Shown here piece after piece: positions 3,433 through 18,966 of a stretch of DNA of 64,000 bases. The stretch is from Octopus vulgaris (Eukaryota). Where the stretch lies: positions 39,494,001 through 39,558,000 of the forward strand of contig OX597830.1 of NCBI GenBank assembly GCA_951406725.2, written 5' to 3'. The position numbers and the translations under genes were made by a program. A model generated the notes under the pieces. It was not told the DNA's origin, ran no database searches, and was given only the letters and a program-made list of their open reading frames with translations. The first letter of the stretch is position 1; each line of letters starts with the position of its first letter.

Positions 3433-6288
3433 CAGAAAAAAAAAAAGAAACATCTGACCCATGCAGGCAGGAAAAGTGAATGTGAAAATGATGAGTGTAA
3501 TATATAAATGGACGCAGGAATGGATAAGTGCCTAAGAAGTTTACTGCGCAAGCATAAAATCACTTGTTTAAAACTCACTGCATGGCACCAGATCACTAAA
3601 GGCCATGTTGTCTGGAATCGAATGAATGGAAATATGGAACCCTATGATTCAGAGAACCAGCCTTCACACACACACACACACACACAGTATCGCATTAATT
3701 CTGCCAGAGGAATACATTAAGGAATAGGTATTTGTTTAATTCTCGGCCATTTGCTTGCATTATATTTCAATAAGCAAAGAGACCAGTTGATGCAACAACT
3801 CATGTCTTTTGTTTTTCTGTAAATTTTAACTATATAAATCATCATCATCATCATCCTTATCAGTTAGCATCCGCTTTCCATGCAAAGCATGGGTTGGACG
3901 GCGGCTCATCGGGGCAGCTCTGGCAATGACCACGTTCGGATGGTTCGCTTACGTGCCACTGGCACTGGTATCACGGCTACAATTTCCATTGATGTTGATC
4001 GATTTTGATTTTGATTTTGATTCTGATTTCTCACTTGCCTCAACAGGTCTTCACAAGTAGAGTTTTGTCACCAGCAGAGGTAAGAGAATAAGTCCTGGGC
4101 CCAATTTGTTCGACTAAAGGCGGTGCTCCAGCATGGCTACAGTCAAATGACAGAAACAAGTAAAAGAATAAAAGAATATATATATAAATATATACACACA
4201 CATATGCATACATATAAATATATGCACATATATAAACATATATATATAAACATATATACTCACAAGTAGCAAGCAGGATAACAAAATTCATTTTCTAATC
4301 TATGAGACTTATCTATATTTATCAGAAAGATCCTGGAGGAGTCAAAAAGCATGTGGTACAGGTAAATTCAAAGATACAGTATTCAGCAATACTAATGGTA
4401 TACATACCGCAGTAATAATCCAGTCATCTCCATAGACAAAACAATGACGGCAATAGATGTCATCAAATTCAGGGAACTGGAACAGAACGAGGAAAAATAT
4501 ATTAAATTTAACCAATATTTATTTTGAAAAGGGCATGAAGCTGGCAGAAACGTTAGCACACCGAGTGAAATGCTTAGCGGTATTTTGTCTGCCATTACAT
4601 TCTGAGTTCAAATTCCACCAAGGTCGACCTTGCCTTTCATCTTTTCGGGGTTGATTAAATAAGTATCAGTTATGCACTGTAGTCGATGTAATTGACTTAA
4701 TCCCTTTGTCTGTCCTTGTTTGTCCACTCTATGTTTAGCCCCACTGTGGGCAATAAAGAAATATTTATTTTGAACATGAGGTTATCCCCAAACCCCCAAG
4801 ATATTTGCAGAGTGAATATGATGATGGTGGAGGGAGAAGTTGAATATATTTACCTCAGTGATTGCTCAGTATTACTTTGATGAACATTATAAAGATGAAA
4901 GACTAACTCATCCTTACTATGATTTGAACTGAGAATGTAGAAATATGTCACTATAAGCTGCAGGCATTTTGATTAGCGTTCTGTCATCAATCAACTACGC
5001 ATCTAGCAAACCAACTACACACCCAACAAGTAAATAGGGAAAAACTATGTGCTCACTCTACCAGCTAGAAATAATCCTTTCTACTAATTGCACATCGACC
5101 CCAGTATGCAACTGGTTCTTAATTTAATGAACCCAAAAGGATAAAAGGCAAAGTTGACCTTAGCAGCATTTTAACTCAGAATGTAAAGACATGAAATGCC
5201 GCTAAGCATTTCACCCGGAATACTATCAATTCTGCCAGCTCACCGCCATAATAATAATAATAATAATACTAACGATAATAATGATTTCAAATTTTGCCAC
5301 AAGGGCAGCTTGGGGGAGGGGATTAAGTTGATTATATTGACACCAGTGTGTAACTGATACTTATTTAATTGATCCTGAAAGGATGAAAGGTAAAGTCGAC
5401 CTCGTCAGAATTTGAACTCAAAACATAAAGACAGACGAAATGCTGCTAAGCATTTCACCTGGCATGCTAACGATTCTGCCAGCTCAACGCTAGAAATAAT
5501 ACCCAGTCCAATGCCAAATTTTTTATCTCCCCTTCTAATGAACCAGAGATCAATAAAATATCTAACAGTAATGTAACAGTAACACCTTTCCTTCATTAGA
5601 AAACTGTCATGGGCAAGAGAAATGAGCATTTCTCACACTGGCACAAACCATTCAAGTTTGTAAGATTGGTGTAGGGTGTTGTCAATTAAACAAAAATGAG
5701 ATACGAGAAATAATTCAAGAGTGGCCAGCGGAATATAAAGGATACCATAAATAAATACAGGTACATCAAATACCATACAACATAAATTATTGATTGGTTA
5801 ACATTTTCTCTGCTTCTAAGGGATGTATCACAATTACCAAATGGTGTTTGAAACCAGCTTCATATCAAAAGGAGAGATAATCTCAAGAATTAAGAATTCT
5901 CCAAAGTTGACATGCCATTTAGGAAATGGACAGGTTTATTGTCTGGAGACAAGAGGACAGTGATTTACACATGTTTCTATCCCAATAGGCATCATCAGCA
6001 CATCAATTATCCTACCTTACCTCCAGTAACCGATGAAACTGACCAAAGTACATAACTCATTTACTCTTTTACTTGTTTCAGTCATTTGACTGTGACCATG
6101 CTGGAGCACCGCCTTTAGTCGAGCAAATCGACCCCAGGACTTATTCTTTGTAAGCCTAGCACTTATTCTATTGGTCACTTTTGCCAAAATGCTAAGTTAT
6201 GGGGGATGTAAACACACCACCATCGGTTGTCATGTGATGTTGGGGGGACAAACACAAACACATAAACACACACATACACATACATATA

Positions 6289-6340
<52 letters not shown>

Positions 6341-6624
6341 CATATATACGACGGGCTTCTTTCAGTTTCAGTCTACCAAATCCACTCACAAGGCTTTGGT
6401 CAGCCCGAGGCTATAGTAAAAGACACATGCCCAAAGTGCCACACAGTGGGACCGAACCTGGAACCATGTGGTTGGTAAGCAAGCTACTTACCATACAGCC
6501 ACCCCTGCACCTGGTATTTCTTTTATCAACCCCAGATGAATTGAATGATAAACAGTAAAGTTGACTCCCTTCCCCCAGCAGCATTTGAACTTACAGCATA
6601 AGTCTCTGAATATAAATATAATCA

Positions 6625-8125: not shown

Positions 8126-8644
8126 TGATAATAATAATTATATCAATTTTTTTCCACAAGGGCAGCTTGGGAGAGGTGGGGACAAGTCGATTACATTGAC
8201 CCCAGTGTTCAACTGGTACTTATTTTATCGACCCTGAAAGGATGAAAGGTAAAGTTGACCTCAGCAGAATTTGAACATAGAAGCAGACGAAATACCGCTA
8301 AGCATTTTGCCTTGTGTGCTAACGATTCTGCCACCTCACTCCCTTAATAATAACAACAACAACAACAACAATAATAATAATAATAATAATACATTCTTTT
8401 ATTAGCCATCAGGATTCACATAAAATAGTATCAAATGACAGGCAATAACATAAAAGACAAAAACAGGATGATATAGTGGGTTTTACAGCATGTAAACAAT
8501 ATATATAACAATAAAAAATTAAACAAATTAAAACTCCCAATAAGGGAAGAGCTTTGAGCTCCTCTTGGAAAAACCCACAACAGCCACAAGTGCCTGATTA
8601 ACAGGGTAAGAGCTCTTCTCCTTTTAATTCTCACAGGTATATGC

Positions 8645-8820: not shown

Positions 8821-9054
8821 CATTCTACTACAGACTACAGAAACAAAGCCTGAAAATTTTTGAGAAGGTGACAAGTTGATTGAATTGACCCCAGAGCTGA
8901 AATGATGCTTATTCTATTAACCCTGAAAGGAGAAAAGGCAAAGTCAATCTCAGCATTGAAGTCAGAACTTAAAGTCAGAAGAAATAGCTGCTAAATATTT
9001 TTTTCCAGTTTGGTACAGATTCCACCAGCTTGCTGCCTAAATAATAACAATGAT

Positions 9055-9418: not shown

Positions 9419-10359
9419 TAATGGTTTCAAAGTTTGGCACAGAGCCAGTAGTTTCTGAAAAGAAGGGATAAGTTAATTACATTGACCCCAGTGTTCAACT
9501 TATGTTATGAACCCCAAAAGGATGAATGGCAAAGTCAACCTCAAAGACATCTGAATGTCGAACATAGAGAGCCAAAAGAAATACTACAAAAGCATTTCCC
9601 TGATTAGCTATCAATTCTGCCAGCTCAGCAATTTTAGGGGAAGGGACACATCAATTACATACGAAAAAGTAATTTGTAACAAATAAATTCTTTTCTACTC
9701 TAGGTAAAAGGCCCAAAATTTAGGTTGATTAGATCAACCCCAGTATGCAACTGGCACTTAATTTATCAACCCCGAAAGGATGCAAAGCAAAGTCGACCTC
9801 GGCGGAATTTGAACTCAGAATATAAAGACAGATAAAATACCGCTAAGCATTTCACCTGGTGTGCTAACATTTCTGCTAGCTCACCGCCTTTTGTAACATA
9901 AATTGGTAAAGTCATGAGTACAAAGGAAAAACATGACCCATATCAGAAGTTGTTGAGATATTATGGTATACATTAAATTAAACGAATGTGAAATAATTCT
10001 TATAGTGAAGATGTCTTTAATGCCTAACCAATATCTTAGGTTCTGTGTGCTAAGGTTTCCATGCAAATTCACATTGAACATTTAAAAGATCATAATTACT
10101 TCATACTTCTTTGAAATCTCTACATTCAATGCCAACGCAACACACATTTCTTATATATGGTCCTTTGAGAGGGTAAGCAAGAGAGGGAGAAAGAAGATCT
10201 TTTGATGCATATAGAGGCAACTCACTGAAACCTTTGGTACCCTAGCTACTATGCTATAACCACAACTACTTCCACCACCAACCAGCACCTACACTCCAGA
10301 TAAGAGAAACTATAGACAACACCTAATATACGATCTTGCCAGTTATCTTGCATATGAAA

Positions 10360-10516: not shown

Positions 10517-10559
<43 letters not shown>

Positions 10560-10562
<3 letters not shown>

Positions 10563-10838
10563 AATGCATATCACCACCACGAACCACTGCATCATACACT
10601 TTAAACATATAGCATGAACGAACTCACTTCAAACTATATATGAACTTTATGATGTCTGACTCCATTGTGTATTATAAATGAATTTCTTATATTTGATAGC
10701 ATGAACTATCTTTTTTTATATATAACTTTTTTTGATAAGGTTCATTTCAGGAACTGAAACATGTTATAATGTATATATAAAAATTAAAAATTGTATAATA
10801 TAGCAGCATTTTCGAACTTCATTTTTTACAAATATATA
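10560..10838 (+). repeat. 5' (partial) pseudo-LTR of the PLE
   Basis: Direct repeat of 15186-15464 (offset 4626); by eye only 2 substitutions in ~279 bp. Confidence 0.93.
10715..10782 (+). ncRNA. Minimal type-I hammerhead ribozyme, U3:A8 variant, in 5' pLTR
   Basis: TTGATAA (10732-10738), stem II GGTTC/GAACT, GAAAC-AT-GT-T (10756-10765) with palindromic stem III. Stem I is AT-rich and weak. Confidence 0.65.
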
Positions 10839-10897
10839 CCGACTCATATACGAGCTAATCCTATTATAAATATCACATCACGTACGAGCTCCCGAAA

Positions 10898-12300
10898 ATG
10901 CCTGCTAAAAAAGACACCAACGACATCTCCTCAATAAATGAAGAGATACTGAAAGAATTGAAAAGCATAAATTCAAACCTAACAGCAGTGTTAAACAAAC
11001 TCAACTCAACACCTCGACCTTCCACACAAACTAACGAGGAAACCGAATTGAATAAAACACCCTCTGAAATATTCGAGAAAGTTGAAAATCTATGCGATAC
11101 AATGACGACATTCTTCACAAACTTTACGAAACAAGAGCAACAAAAAGAAGGAACACATGAGAAGAACCGAGCAACTTCAACATTACAAATAAAGAACCAA
11201 GTCCTCCCCCAATGGAGAACACTACAGCGAAACAGAAAATTCACTTTTTGGAAAATTATACAAAATCAGAATAAAGCAGAGATTTACCAAAAATGGCTAG
11301 ACTCAACACCCCTAGTCATACCCCGTAAATTACAAATCAAGCCCATCTCGTAAGAACCAGAAGAACAAAGAAAACTTAGAGAAAAAAATGTCATTAGAAA
11401 AAAATGAAGATGGAAATAGAACTACTCAAGCTGAGAGCTACGACGAATGAAGAAAAAGTAAAAATCATAGACGAGGAAATCAACGAAGAAGTCATCAAAC
11501 TAATAGACGACATCAATACTGAAACATTACCAGCACTATGGAATGAAGAATGTGAAAAAGAGGAACTTAAGTCCCTCCAACGATGGGAAAAGAGCGCCAT
11601 CTGGTTTTTAGATTATGAAACCTACTTCAAAAATGAACACATATCCAACAACCCCTTCATAAAATTAAGTCAATCAAAACCAAATACCAACAGAACGGAA
11701 CAACCACCAAGAAATCCTAACACACTCTACACCAGAAAAGTACACCTAAAACACACCCCACACTACCTACACCAACCCCAAAACACCTACAGAGGCCCAC
11801 CACACCAGTTCGAAAATAGACATACCAACAGAGCAGAACAACCACCAAGAAATCCAAACACACTCTACACCAGAAAAATACATTTAAAACGCACCCCACA
11901 CTACCTACACCAACCCCAAAACACTTACAGGGTCCCACCACACCATTCCACGAACCTAAGAGCCACAACATACAATACTATAAAATACAATACACATAAC
12001 CAAACCAAAACGCTACTACCAAACATCCACCCCAGGAACCAACCATACAAACATAACAAACAACAAATGCACTACGGAGGAAACAACTACCAACACAATA
12101 TACCTGATGAACTAAGACGGAACACTAGGTACAACAACACACTCCAGAACAGAGCACCACAAACTCACTCTGACAATTATAACAACATGAGACAGATAAA
12201 TAGTAGCTTTGAACATAACTACACCAACCATTTTTTAGACCTTACACACAGGAACAGGGACACACGATGGCAAAGGACAAACAAAAGAAACCTCAGGTAA
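10898..12300 (+). pseudogene. PLE ORF1, ~467-aa coiled-coil/low-complexity protein, disrupted
   Basis: ORFs 10898-11353 and 11404-12300 join if TAA 11351-11353 is read through and one extra A is removed from the A-run near 11382-11388 (…KPIS*EPEEQRKLREK/MSLEKMKMEIELL). E/K/L-rich helical N-half; Q/N/H/P-rich C-half with a 46-aa duplication. Confidence 0.75.
12231..12237 (+). promoter_or_regulatory. Candidate -1 ribosomal frameshift heptamer T_TTT_TTA linking ORF1 to the RT frame
   Basis: X_XXY_YYZ register in the ORF1 frame (CAT TTT TTA). The -1 frame is the RT frame; it opens after TAG 12201-12203 and is stop-free from the heptamer to ATG 12267. Confidence 0.6.
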
Positions 12301-14564
12301 TTAAGATAATGAATCTCTCAAACAAAGAACTTACACCTAACGAAATAAGCATACTCTCCAAAGGACTTAAATTTACACCTACCCCACAACGTTCTAATTA
12401 CTATGAAATGAAAGATGATATTTCGGAATTTTGCAGAAAACTAAGACTCACCGAGGCATTTCAAGACAAACAAATAGAGGAGGACTCAATAGCTAGAAAC
12501 AAGAGCAATTACACCCCCACCAAGGGAAAGAATAAAGCCTTAGACCGCTATTGTGACTACATAACTAATTTCCCGTTTCAATTCATCAAGAAACAAAAAC
12601 ACAGCCCTAACTTCAACAAAAGAGAATGGAACGACCTCATCAAACTAAGAGAAGACAAAACAATAACAATTAAGGAGGCAGATAAGGGCAACGCGATAGT
12701 AATAATGAATACAAACGATTATAAAAATTTAGTGCTATCCCTATTAAGAGATGAAACGTATTATGAAAGGGCCCAACAGTATAATCAGCAAAAAATAATG
12801 CATAACCTTAGGACATTAATCAACACATACCAAGAAGGACTCACGAACAAGGAGTATGAATACATCACTAACTTCAAATGCAAATCGAGTTTGTTCTATG
12901 GTATCCCTAAGGTACACAAAAGCCAAATAATTAGAGAAATGTGCAAAACATCCACCGACATACTCATCAAAATCCCTTCACCAAATGATCTCAAACTAAG
13001 ACCGATAATAGCAGGGCCAGCATGTGAAACTCACCGCCTCAGCAATTTCTTAGACACACTTCTTAAACCTTTCCTAAAACACATCAAAAGCTACGTAAGA
13101 GACGATATAGATATGCTCAACCACCTCCCTAAAACAGTCAATGAGAAAACCCTTCTAGTATCATTCGACGTAGTTAATCTTTATTCTAACATCCCTCACA
13201 ACCTAGGAATAGAAGCGATCACCTTCTGGCTGAATAACTACCCCTTTGAACTCCCAACTCGCATAAACAAAGACCTTATAATAGAAGGACTTAGATTTAT
13301 TTTAGAGAACAATTATTTTATTTTTGACAATGATTTCTACAGACAAAGATCGGGAACAGCGATGGGCACGCGTACTGCACCATCTTTTGCCAACCTAGTG
13401 ATGGGATACCTCGAGAAAATACTCTACCGGATAACACTCGAGAAATATGGAAACACCTTCGCCACCTATATCCATAACAACTGGAAAAGATACCTCGATG
13501 ACTGTTTCATCATCTGAGACAAAGGTATAGAGAAACTTGAGGAATTTAAAATACTATTAAATGGAATAAACGACAATATACAATTCATGATGGATCACAA
13601 CGAAAAAGAATTACCATTTTTAGACATCCTCATTAAGAAAACCGGCAACAAAATAGAGACAGATATCTACTATAAACTGACAGACTCCAAACAGTACCTA
13701 CCCTTTGATTCATGCCACCCACGACACACTAGAATGAATGTCCCTTTTTGTTTAGCTAGAAGGATTTGCACCATAATATCAGACACAAACACCCGACACA
13801 CACGTCTCCAGGAACTTAGAACCACACTCACAAATAGAAACTATCCACAGCCCCTAATAGACAGTGCAATCCAACGGGTACTTAAATTAAGTATAGAAGA
13901 CCTGAGACAAACAAAACCAAAAAAGAAAGAACAATTAAAAACCCTTCCCTACATCTCTACACACAACCCACTCAACAATGAGGCCTTCAACACCATACTA
14001 CAAAGCACAGCCCTACTAAAGGGAGACCCAAAGATGAACCGGATCCTCGAAACACACACCATCATTAAAAGTAAACGGCAACCAAAATCCTTGAAAAGGA
14101 TTTTAACCCAAGCTACACTGCACTCAACATCAACCACAAAACCAGCAGTTAGAAAATGTGGAAGGCCCAACTGCGGAATCTGTGTCATCTTGAAAGAAGG
14201 ATCAGAATTTATACTGGAACAAGGCCACCAGTTCACCATTAGAACAAACTTCACCTGCGCATCAGAAAACTTAATTTACGTCATAACATGCGCAGGCTGC
14301 AATAGGCAGTATATAGGCCATACAAAAAATAGCTTACGTAACAGAATGGCGGTGCATAAATCACAAATTAGAAACCCTGATTACCGGAAAATACCGGTCA
14401 GCGGACACATAGATAGATGTGCTGGAAATGTAAATCCGAAATTTACAACTAACCCGCACTATAAATTCAGTGACAACGCAACCTTCACGCAACGCCAAAA
14501 TAAAGAACTGTATTTCATAAAAAAATTTAGACCAAGTTTAAACACCCTGGGCCAGGAATATTAA
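12267..14564 (+). pseudogene. PLE ORF2: reverse transcriptase + GIY-YIG endonuclease, one in-frame TGA
   Basis: ORFs 12267-13517 and 13587-14564 are in the same frame, separated only by TGA 13515-13517 in YLDDCFII*D (Trp expected). C-terminal LIYVITCAGCNRQYIG…RMAVH…KE…PSLN is a GIY-YIG domain. Confidence 0.93.
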
Positions 14565-14754
14565 AACAAAAGATAGGTCCTCCGAAAAGGAGAAGCAAAA
14601 TTCCACCACGGCCGCTACCTTAAACAGTCACTCGCACTGACGGAAATATGCCTTAGGAAAAAAGGAAAAAAAAACTTATAAAAGATCTCTTCGTACAAAT
14701 CTAACCCTGATGGACTGACCACATACGATACAGCTAAGGGTCAGACCCGATTCT

Positions 14755-15033
14755 GATTGGTCAACACGTTGATGACGTCTAGTTCTGCTAGACTGGACAG
14801 GATACAGACAAGGGGCAGAGATTAGTCAGAATATTGATGACGTCCTTTTCTGCTTGACTAGTCACCTAACAGGATACAGACAAGAGGCAGTTATAATACA
14901 GCGATAGGTCACGATTGGTCAGAATGTTGATGACGTCCCGTTCTGCTTGACTAAGCCACCTAACGAAACGATTGGTCAAAACGTTGATGACGTCACGTTA
15001 CGCTGGACTGACCACCTAACAGGTGTTATAAAA
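14755..15033 (+). promoter_or_regulatory. Putative PLE internal promoter: 4 tandem (ATTGG + TGACGTC) modules followed by TATAAAA
   Basis: GATT(G/A)GTC at 14755, 14820, 14913, 14970, each followed 16 nt later by GATGACGTC (14771, 14836, 14929, 14986); TATAAAA at 15027-15033. Confidence 0.65.
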
Positions 15034-15185
15034 CCCGAACAATTCACAAGATTCGCCAGAATCATCCAGCGAACACCAACCATAAGTCATCACAGTTGCT
15101 CAAGGTAAAAATGAATTCCCCGCTCTTTCAGGAACATCAATTTTTTATATTGACTGCATTCCACCACTTTGATCTATTTTTTATA

Positions 15186-15464
15186 TTGAATGCATATCAC
15201 CACCACGAACCACTGCATCATACACTTTAAACATATAGCATGAACGAACTCACTTCAAACTATATATGAACTTTATGATGTCTGACTCCATTGTGTATTA
15301 TAAATGAATTTCTTATATTTGATAGCATGAACTATCTTTTTTTATATATAACTTTTTTTGATAAGGTTCATTTCAGGAACTGAAACATGTTATAATGTAT
15401 ATATAAAAGTTAAAAATTGTACAATATAGCAGCATTTTCGAACTTCATTTTTTACAAATATATA
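15186..15464 (+). repeat. 3' pseudo-LTR segment of the PLE
   Basis: Direct repeat of 10560-10838, running straight into (TA)n. Confidence 0.93.
15341..15412 (+). ncRNA. Minimal type-I hammerhead ribozyme, U3:A8 variant, in 3' pLTR
   Basis: Same core: TTGATAA 15358-15364, GAAACATGTT 15382-15391. Confidence 0.65.
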
Positions 15465-16349
15465 TATATATATATATATATATGAGTCACATCTTTAAAA
15501 AGGTTTTTCAATGTCAACTTCCGGTATTGACATAGCAAGGGCAACATTTTCTGTTTTCATTTGTGAATCCTCTCACTCTCTATTTTAATGTTTTCATTTC
15601 AAGTTTTAATTCACTATTTGCAAACAACTATGATAAATTACTGAAAGAAATATTTACTAAGCAAGTGAGAATTTTTATAAAGTGAAGTTTTCAAGAGAAT
15701 TTATTTTCTGAACTTCCTTTCATTATTGAATATTTCAAGTTTGCAAGTTTAAATATTCGGTACAAGATAGCTTTTAACGAGCTTTCATTTATATGATTTT
15801 TTTGATTTCATGTTTATTTCACTCATTGTTTTCAATGTTCTCTCCCCATTCTCTCTCTCTCTCTCATGCACACACACTGTCTCTCTAATATAAACATCCA
15901 CACTGTTTCTGTGATATAAACACATACACACACACCAGGTTTGATTTCGTTATTACACAAATATCATATTAGAATTTTGCAATTCAACATGGGGTGTCCA
16001 AAAAAATATGGGCATTCTTTCACTTGAACCCACACACTTCGTTAATTTCCATAAAAATTTTTTACTCATTTACTTTTTGCATGCCATGTTCAGCTCTATG
16101 CATTTGTCATCAGTTACACATGCACACATGTGTTTTTGTATGTATGTTTGTATACATTTATATATGTGTGTGTGTTTGTGTGCATGTGTGTGAGAGAGAG
16201 AGAGTGGGTGAAAGGGTGTGTTGTCATGTATACATACATACATACATAAATACATATACATACATCTTTTTTGTATATATGTGTGTGCGTGTGTGTCAGA
16301 CAAAGAGAGAGAGAGAAAGAAAGTGATGTCTAAGTGGCACACACACACA

Positions 16350-17184: not shown

Positions 17185-18559
17185 CAGACACGTGTGTGTG
17201 TATGCATGAATGTATACATACATATACACAAACATCTGCGCACACATAAGTATATCAGTAATAATTGATGCTATTTATCAGAATTACCATTCTTGGTTTC
17301 AACAATAAATACCTCACTAGGTTTCCAGAAGCAATAAATTGAAAAAAAGAAGATATTTTTTTTGTAAGTATTATTTTTATTATAATTATCTTTCTTAAGC
17401 TAATACAAGATTCTAATCAATGTACATGAGAAATAGAAGTAATTAGCAAATTTCTTGCTTGTAGACAATGACAGCAACAAAAACAACAGTACAAACCTCA
17501 GCAGACCATCTAACGTTTATCTGAAATAGCCACAGGTGGGTGTATAGTTTGTGACTATCACCTAATCATATATTGTCTCTACCAGGCATCTCATTAAACA
17601 AACACAACAGACTGGAAATATAACCAAATTACACAAATGAAGGAATCACAGAGAAATTGGATGATGTCTCAGTGATAAAGCCATTCATTCAGTCATTCGT
17701 TTATTTCTTGTAATGTAAAGCCAACAGGTTTAATAATGCTGTGCTGGTTGAGTGAGTGAGTAACATACCAGTTCTACCTTAAATAAATAATTGCAATTTC
17801 GTGTCTTCAACATTGAAGTAGAGGCAAAATGACTGAGTGCATATGAAGGCCCAGTGGTCAGGATGTATGCACAAGTGACACATCATCACCATCATCATCA
17901 TCATCATCATTGTCGTTTAACATCCGTTTTCCATGCTAGCATGGGTTGGATGGTTCGACCAGGGTCTGGGAAGCCAGGAGACTGCGCCAGGCTCCAGTCT
18001 GATCTGGCAGTGTTTCTACAGCTGGATGCCCTTCCTAACGCCAACCACCCCATTAGTGGAGTGGGTGCTTTTTGCGTACTTTTACAATGGCCATAAAGTT
18101 CAGGAACCACTAACAAACATCATGATCATGAATTCAATTCTTGTTAGTGTTAGTGCTGCGATGCCCTTGGATAAGGCACATATTCTTAGTTTTTTTTATA
18201 ATCCATGGTTTTATAATCAGTGGTTAGCAGTAAACAGAACATGCAGTTACCCAAGCAATGGATGCAAAGCAATTTTTTCTTTTTGTTTGGTATTAAACTA
18301 CCAGCTCGCAGGCTACATCATTATTCATCATCATTTTATGTCTCTTTTACTTGTTTCAGTCATTTGACTGCAGCCATGCTGGAGCACCGCCTTTAGTCGA
18401 GCAAATTGACCCCAGGACTTATTCTTTGGAAGCCTAGTACTTATTCTATCGGTCTATTTTTGCCAAACCACTAAGTTACGGGGACGTAAACACACAAGCA
18501 TTGCTTGTCAAACGATGTTGGGGAGCCAAATAGACACACAAACATATACACACACATAC

Positions 18560-18604
<45 letters not shown>

Positions 18605-18966
18605 TATATATACAATGGGCTCCTTTCAGTTTCCGTCTACCAAATCCACTCGCAAGGCTTTGGTCAGCCTGGGGCTATAGTAGAAGACACTTGCCCAAGG
18701 TGCCAAGCTGTGGGAATCAACCCAGAACTATGTCGTTCGAAAGCAAGCTACTTACCACACAGCCACTCCTTTATGCTGCTGACATGAGTAGAACAGTTTG
18801 ATAGGATTCACTAAATCAAAGGACCGTGTTTTGCTTCATTTTTGGCATGGTTTCTAAGGTTGAGTGCCCTTCCAAATACCAACCACTTTACAGAGTGTAC
18901 TGGGTGCATTTTTCTTTTTTTTTTGTGGCACCAGCATTATTGAGGTTGTCTTGGCATCATTTAGAC

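Follow-up and report, generated by a model that had tools for sequence, protein, structure and literature searches.

Overlapping frames joined by a conserved slippery heptamer suggest programmed -1 frameshifting in Neptune-type Penelope-like elements

Penelope-like elements (PLEs) that encode an endonuclease (EN) have been given as retroelements that have just one open reading frame (ORF) (PMC8557442, PMC6515669, PMC4209133; papers are cited by PMC number and for their available portions), and PLEs in general were divided into those whose one ORF encodes reverse transcriptase (RT) plus EN and those that have two ORFs and no EN (PMC6431247). A killifish Neptune consensus was reported with a non-overlapping ORF1 of 420 nt, and the available portion of that paper mentioned no frameshift (PMC12602865). 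According to the legend of Fig. 1 in PMC8557442, what separates the ORF1 of a PLE may be a frameshift accompanied by a pseudoknot. We analysed a 64,000-nt stretch of the Octopus vulgaris genome (contig OX597830.1, positions 39,494,001 to 39,558,000; hereafter the window), in which an EN-containing (EN+) PLE spans approximately positions 10556-15464 between (AT)21 and (AT)13 microsatellites. It was concluded, with a probability of about 0.85, that this element represents a recently active Neptune-type EN+ family of a large clade that appears to use programmed -1 ribosomal frameshifting. The two-frame, putatively frameshifting organisation of EN+ PLEs was new relative to the literature found, while frameshifting in PLEs without EN (EN-minus) was already known; no report of frameshifting in EN+ PLEs was found in a search that had Repbase, Dfam and subscription journals outside its range.

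With the described Neptune elements (PMC8557442) the window element shares an RT followed by a C-terminal GIY-YIG EN with a CCHH motif, a CX2-5CxxC linker, pseudo-long terminal repeats (pseudo-LTRs) in a partial tandem, a candidate hammerhead-like core and (TA)n targets, and its RT motif 3/4 resembled those of DreriNep1, XtropNep4 and Neptune1_Ap when compared by eye. However, Neptune elements are known as single-ORF, whereas the clade of the window element has a separate ORF1 of 370-550 aa that overlaps the RT frame in -1.

In the window copy, ORF1 extends from ATG 10898 to TAA 12298-12300. As the initial annotation described, TTTTTTA at 12231-12237 lies in the X XXY YYZ register of ORF1 (codons CAT TTT TTA), the -1 frame is that of the RT-GIY-YIG protein, and an RT-frame ATG is present at 12267. 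The RT frame had been said to open 28 nt before the heptamer; the actual distance is 12 nt, since beyond TAG 12201-12203 further stops occur at 12204, 12210 and 12216 and the frame opens at 12219, after TAA 12216-12218. The window copy is a decayed element. In comparison with a natural intact copy of 98% identity, its ORF1 was broken by TAA 11351-11353 and by two one-base insertions in A runs near 11382 and 11398, and its RT frame was interrupted by TGA 13515-13517. The ORF1 of about 467 codons proposed earlier thus describes the family (466 aa in intact copies) and not the broken window copy.

Many copies of the family were present in the host assembly (G000; 2.8 Gb, 227 contigs). For a copy census, a search pattern was tied to the flanking sequence and set no condition on the T run; among the 69 copies found, the junction read T6A (six T, then A) in 64, T5A in 2 and T7A in 1, with substitutions in the remaining 2. 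Twenty copies were retrieved from the 40 best matches, chosen partly for intactness; ORF1 of 466 aa was intact in 7 of these, the RT-EN frame of 781 codons in 11, and both in 3, and the -1 offset was constant in the intact copies. Therefore, as had been proposed from the window alone, the offset was established as the family state and not an indel of the window copy. A sister family of 133 copies showed T6A in 97 and T7 in 2 of the 100 copies listed. The sister family was also found in head-to-tail full-length tandems with a unit of ~4.43 kb (G000, contig C9: 10674521, 10678954 and 10683374; 55718237 and 55722663). The window family itself splits at positions 12242-12243, right after the heptamer, into TT (18/30) and CC (12/30) copies, most fully intact copies being CC.

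The conservation of the junction was then followed in diverged relatives. ORF1 residues 1-258 matched 567 clusters (50% identity, E<=0.001), and the best 150 together with another search gave 153 proteins. In 64 of 77 ORF1 homologues of at least 330 aa, the heptamer's footprint x-F-L was represented by an F-L dipeptide among the last 45 residues, against 4/77 and 6/77 in control windows and a mean of 6.5 (maximum 16) in 1000 shuffles. M, K, E, Q and W did not occur before FL or FF (0/69 compared with a 21% background), which would be expected of a position whose codon has to end in T. At the DNA level, four distant ORF1s served as queries against G000, and contigs of genomes and metagenomes were scanned with RT. 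An RT start came after ORF1 in 176 locus-strands, many of them one place retrieved twice, and 153 of the 176 carried an in-register TTTTTT[AG]. Eight of the other 23 came from a T TTT TTT family (6 in register, 2 with an A-run indel), and in the rest the run was T5 or T7 or a single base was inserted or deleted farther downstream.

Altogether 18 junction types were distinguished, 9 in G000 and 9 foreign, with RT identities to the window's family from ~70% down to 29%; four loci had been added to them by hand, their ORF1 core being off the contig or unrelated. The heptamer was in register in 18/18 types (14 TTTTTTA, 3 TTTTTTG and 1 TTTTTTT), when the background of TTTTTT[AG] elsewhere in the elements predicted 0.012 in-register hits per 200 nt. 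Given F-L, the ORF1 codon usage leaves a probability of 0.047 per lineage for heptamer-compatible synonymous codons. In five comparisons between families, the nonsynonymous proportion (pN) in the ORF1 core was 0.19-0.41 and the synonymous one (pS) 0.67-0.82, which indicates purifying selection on this core. Since pS was saturated, synonymous sites have been scrambled, yet the codon choice at the heptamer was kept; the conservation that the initial annotation had proposed to check was thus borne out in diverged families. The RT frame opens 0-105 nt 5' of the heptamer in most junction types. No RT-frame ATG precedes the first conserved RT motif in 14/18 types, and one is present in only 4/18, so that RT initiation at ATG 12267, the alternative raised at the outset, fails as a general explanation. 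In one family, seven loci (L169, L182, L242, L243, L254, L256 and L263) had all lost one base from a G/A run shortly past the heptamer, and this loss disconnects the -1 frame; a non-autonomous subfamily or homopolymer errors are possible causes.

The distance from the heptamer to the ORF1 stop was analysed in 104 ORF1 homologues of at least 270 aa, 84 of which have FL or FF in the last 60 residues. The stop followed FL after exactly 10 codons in 26/84, after 11 codons in 6/84 and sooner in only 1/84, while the measured stop density of 0.074 per codon predicted 3.5% at 10 codons and 54% sooner. The ten residues past FL showed only 10% identity and ranged from acidic to basic (median identity of the 26 proteins, 26%); therefore, the peptide itself is not what is conserved. 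On a quick ORF1 tree the trait was clustered, with 10 changes against 22.4 in shuffled data, so that the 26 cases should not be counted as independent. At the DNA level, the 10-codon spacer was observed in 7/18 junction types. All 7 stops were TAA or TAG followed by C, and 6/7 were followed by CA; the stop-CA background was 0.106, and with three G000 families counted once the ratio was 4/5 (p ~6e-4). A C at +4, and an A at +5 after UAG, weaken termination (PMC5829715). It is the heptamer on which the stop distance is anchored; that to the RT motif ranged from 20 to 68 codons. In the window's family, TGG occupies the 10-codon position and together with the A before it gives ATG 12267, and the ORF1 stop comes 20 codons past the heptamer. 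A second cluster of stops, at 20 codons, was considered as a trisome spacing and dropped; in several families that stop comes from Val/Ile-Ile codons of the RT motif.

Several observations weigh against the proposed frameshifting and its link to the stop. The junction types inside G000 are related and not independent of each other. A called start 5' of the first motif was found in 57 of 120 RT homologues, these being bacterial-style gene calls and ambiguous. ATG 12267, whose surroundings favour initiation (A at -3, G at +4), is common to three G000 families, and the nearest RT homologues, P0162-P0167, start with M-E or M-A at the same distance to the first motif. The 10-codon spacing was missing in 58/84 homologues and in 11/18 junction types, including the window's family. 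Furthermore, local folding of 12160-12400 was worse than that of shuffles (z +2.38), and no significant downstream stem-loop was detected in the window copy: the region 12238-12310, in which a weak cct...agg stem had been noticed, folds at -3.3 kcal/mol (z +0.52). In a pseudoknot scan (perfect stems, 85 nt past the heptamer), 1/16 EN+ junctions beat all 25 shuffles. In the same scan 7/9 EN-minus PLE control junctions beat all shuffles, and the scan therefore detects such structures where they are present. It was concluded that a 3' stem or pseudoknot is not the stimulator, as far as local structure is concerned (long-range pairing was outside the scan).

Engineered reporters in E. coli have shown that stalling of one ribosome at a slow stop raises the -1 frameshifting of the trailing ribosome ~2-fold, with an optimum of 9 codons between the A-sites and a range of 8-10 (PMC6815119), and eukaryotic disomes protect ~60-64 nt (PMC12086091). 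By our reckoning, 10 codons (30 nt) would be the spacing needed for an 80S version of such a collision. We proposed tentatively that in the 10-codon families the terminating ribosome acts as the stimulator, at odds somewhat short of even. Equally tentative is the wider proposal of a clade-wide, structure-free -1 frameshift stimulated by a ribosome terminating at the ORF1 stop 10 codons on, with ORF1 as the ancestral PLE N-terminal domain made gag-like. The E. coli reporters (PMC6815119) resemble this arrangement in having a heptad, no RNA structure and a slow stop one footprint on, at 9 against 10 codons; unlike the signal discussed here, which is natural, eukaryotic, known from sequence alone and missing in the window's family, they are artificial bacterial constructs. 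The 0-frame stop of SARS-CoV-2 (PMC8168617) differs as well: lying 5 codons on, it lets the pseudoknot refold, and high ribosome load lowers the shift, opposite to the collision model. No natural collision-stimulated frameshift signal was found in the literature, as judged from search listings. It stood close to an even chance that the frameshift is real and its stimulator another one, whether a protein on a stop-CAC-like motif, long-range pairing or none, the spacing then reflecting a minimal tail or ancestry. The clustering of the 10-codon state on the ORF1 tree and its absence from most homologues and junction types agree with this. However, a minimal or inherited tail accords poorly with ten residues of such low identity and varied charge and with a distance anchored on the heptamer instead of the RT motif, and a motif 31 nt downstream would be beyond the entry channel of the slipping ribosome.

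Regardless of the stimulator, we proposed that one unspliced RNA would be translated from ORF1 ATG 10898. Most ribosomes would release the 466-aa ORF1 protein, a helical bundle with a basic, presumably disordered tail and probably the RNA-coating part of a ribonucleoprotein, and a few percent would slip by -1 on U UUU UUA to produce an ORF1-RT-EN fusion of ~1,220 aa, which would nick (TA)n targets and reverse-transcribe the RNA. The slip would set a gag/gag-pol-like ratio, and the frameshift would have uncoupled the PLE N-terminal domain from RT, giving ORF1. In the window's family, where the 10-codon stop has been lost, the heptamer by itself or ribosomes queuing at the later stop would serve instead. 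The gag/gag-pol logic suggested initially for a Neptune-type PLE is supported: the heptamer and the -1 offset, from which frameshifting itself is deduced, are conserved, and the protein has Neptune-type motifs. Separate synthesis of RT-EN from ATG 12267 by termination-reinitiation, with the heptamer as a relic or second route, was judged improbable. Such a mechanism has precedents in LINE-1 ORF2 and the calicivirus stop-start, the ATG is kept in 3/9 G000 families and directly adjoins the stop in one family (ATGGTAG), W occurs at the 10-codon ORF1 position in 6/57 later-stop homologues against a 2% background, and the starts of P0162-P0167 fit it; yet the heptamer is kept by the 14/18 types without such an ATG, including the two nearest sister families on the RT tree (one with at least 133 copies), and by the window's family itself in 64/69 copies. 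As a second route co-existing with frameshifting in the window's subclade, reinitiation was considered unlikely, though worth keeping in mind. Joining of the frames in RNA, where polymerase slippage on T6 adds a U or a short intron is removed, appeared very improbable. T7 does put the frames together and was seen in 1/69 and 2/100 listed copies, and PLEs can carry introns (PMC4209133). Nevertheless, slippage needs no codon register, which was nonetheless found in 18/18 types, and frequent slippage would enter DNA and make T7 copies common. Moreover, two contigs cross the junction without a joint, gap or indel; they come from runs whose RNA status is a guess, and contigs hide rare variants. Finally, the view of the window copy as a single-ORF element with a homopolymer indel or an error of assembly, which other homopolymer indels in that copy might have suggested, has next to no probability: the same offset occurred in 64/69 copies, 8 other G000 families and 9 foreign types, the ORF1 homologues stop soon after the FL footprint, and the reading was refuted by the copy census, the intact copies and the diverged junction types.

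The ORF1 protein was modeled by AlphaFold2 from 50 sequences as an all-helical domain (mean pLDDT 88; helices 10-37, 55-135, 155-201 and 204-246), and the sequence past it forms a basic tail rich in N, R, Q, H and P. LINE ORF1p and Gag offer analogies for RNA coating by ORF1, and together with the composition they suggest that ORF1 may bind RNA and oligomerise. No convincing Pfam family was found for ORF1, one homologue (P0045) reaching DUF4292 at 23.9 bits with a cut-off of 23, and the ESM Atlas gave matches only at 0.75. A Foldseek search of the model against PDB gave nothing at E<=0.001, and a VIA search returned generic three-helix bundles (best Z 8.9) with no named fold. No match was obtained in ORF1-based scans of metagenome and viral contigs or in an RT scan of viral contigs. 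The ORF1 core and the N-terminal domain of single-ORF PLE proteins both contain the loop motif [IL]-[IL]-P-[RK]-x-[LF] and have a common helix-loop-helix-turn-helix layout and lengths. They were aligned by hhalign over 85 columns at E 0.001 and a probability of 21% (reversed control, E 0.47), a first run against a mixed N-terminal alignment having given only E 0.054, and they share two top structural neighbours over equivalent ranges, which, being generic bundles, are weak evidence. Descent of ORF1 from this N-terminal domain was considered fairly probable. Profile comparison with the ORF1 of EN-minus PLEs detected no similarity.

The RT-EN protein scored 28.9 bits (E 1.1e-6) against Pfam RVT_1, just below the cut-off of 29.6, and GIY-YIG was above its cut-off (E 2.6e-6); no match to PDB was obtained with the RT-EN sequence. 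The RT motifs DKG, GTAMG and YLDD were conserved. The CCHH motif (C691, C694, H713 and H730, with two Cys between GIY and YIG) was invariant in 26 RTs, as was a zinc-finger-like linker before EN, C647-x4-C652-x2-C655, which fits the CX2-5CxxC definition of Neptune (PMC8557442). EN is C-terminal to RT, not N-terminal as in Naiad; the presence of GIY-YIG sets the element apart from the EN-minus Athena and Coprina types; and two overlapping frames, found in the intact copies and in 18/18 junction types, depart from the canonical single ORF of EN+ PLEs. On a quick RT tree of 46 rows without named references, 10 of 11 frameshifted EN+ elements fell on one branch (SH-aLRT 100), beside single-ORF linker-finger elements and apart from elements with a GSP motif; the deep fork had a support of 80. 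The Neptune clade itself is paraphyletic (PMC8557442). The eleventh element, L113, falls on a different RT branch; an in-register T TTT TTA (junction ~936) connects its RT to an unrelated upstream ORF (1-975). This ORF stops 11 codons past the heptamer, has no Pfam match and carries a motif that gives it what we take to be an SGNH/GDSL-esterase-like look. L113 is possibly an independent origin of the same frameshift signal.

The PLE frameshift with a pseudoknot is reportedly assigned (Arkhipova, 2017) to EN-minus Athena/Terminon elements. The EN-minus control group used here consisted of L125, L128, L138, L152, L153, L155, L157, L160, L161 and L165, with ORF1 of 600-780 aa. Like the clade of the window element, these have ORF1 5' of a PLE RT, a -1 frame and a slippery heptamer. 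However, the controls have A AAA AAC, a clear H-type pseudoknot, a ~200-codon overlap and no EN, whereas the window's clade has U6N, no structure, an overlap of 10-25 codons, an EN and a separate RT branch. The control ORF1s carry an I-P-R-S-L loop motif like other PLE N-termini, and a pattern search for telomere-type repeats in the controls found none. HIV-1 gag-pol uses the same UUUUUUA, as the initial annotation had pointed out; the heptamer is usually followed by G, and HIV-1 pairs a structural protein with a rare RT fusion, as proposed here (PMC12086091). Unlike HIV-1, the window's clade is without a downstream stem-loop, capsid, protease, integrase or LTR, and its ORF1 gave no Gag-like fold match.

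The features of the window element are collected in Table 1.

Table 1. Features of the Penelope-like element and its borders, in window positions
Feature	Position	Strand	Remarks
(AT)21 microsatellite	10519..10560	.	5' insertion site
Upstream partial pseudo-LTR	10556..10838	+	3' end of tandem unit; 99% identity to 15182-15464 (283-nt terminal repeat)
Hammerhead-like core, upstream copy	10732..10760	+	U3-A8 variant; pattern scan
ORF1	10898..12300	+	466 aa when intact; helical N-terminal domain, basic low-complexity tail; broken in window copy
138-nt tandem duplication	11684..11945	+	46 aa, ORF1 tail; other copies have it too
RT-EN frame	12219..14564	+	781 codons when intact; RT core, linker, C-terminal GIY-YIG
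Slippery heptamer T TTT TTA	12231..12237	+	ORF1 register; -1 frame is the RT frame
RT-frame ATG	12267..12270	+	overlaps ORF1 codon TGG, 10 codons past heptamer; ORF1 stop there in sister families
C-x4-CxxC linker of RT-EN frame	about 14157-14183	+	
C-terminal GIY-YIG of RT-EN frame	about 14271-14534	+	
3' untranslated region (UTR) / pseudo-LTR	14565..15464	+	four ~55-nt repeats at 14755-15023
Hammerhead-like core, downstream	15358-15386	+	pattern scan
(AT)13 microsatellite	15458..15483	.	3' insertion site

The layout of a pseudo-LTR with a partial tandem recurs in other copies. When the ends of 8 full-length copies were examined, (TA)n was found in 6/8 and the tandem unit continued in 2/8. The hammerhead-like cores at 10732 and 15358 show U3-A8 covariation, and their cleavage is putative; Rfam gave no hammerhead ribozyme, its scan of the window returning AT-repeat noise only. 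The U3-A8 hammerhead variant has been reported for PLEs (PMC4209133). Each of the ~55-nt repeats in the 3' UTR contains the words ATTGG and TGACGT, and the repeat number varies among copies. We take these words to be CCAAT- and CRE-like, presumably a candidate promoter for the next tandem unit. A short interspersed repeat was present 5' of the element in three to four diverged copies (8164-8345, 8853-8971, 9450-9634 and 9724-9890), and a second dispersed repeat pair, 81-90% alike and 12.3 kb apart, flanks the element at 6064-6506 and 18342-18770. Animal-type PLEs were also encountered in bacterial genome bins (L081-L087; P0191, P0202, P0215, P0222, P0236, P0264 and P0268), the binned proteins being named as bivalve gill symbiont, Campylobacteraceae, SUP05 and Bacteroidota. 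Most likely, these are mis-binned host DNA and a source of false bacterial RT/GIY-YIG annotations.

Since EN+ PLEs are usually annotated as single-ORF, a two-frame clade means that full-length consensus models have been truncated to begin with RT, with a structural protein overlooked. The scale is indicated by the 567 ORF1 clusters (50% identity), to none of which a convincing Pfam family could be assigned. ORF1 also hints at the role of the unexplained helical N-terminus in ordinary PLE proteins. The fixed spacing from heptamer to stop makes the use of collisions by natural eukaryotic frameshift signals testable with dozens of natural sequences. If the collision proposal is true, it would be a case of natural, selected, collision-programmed frameshifting, and the RT output of these elements would rise with ribosome load.

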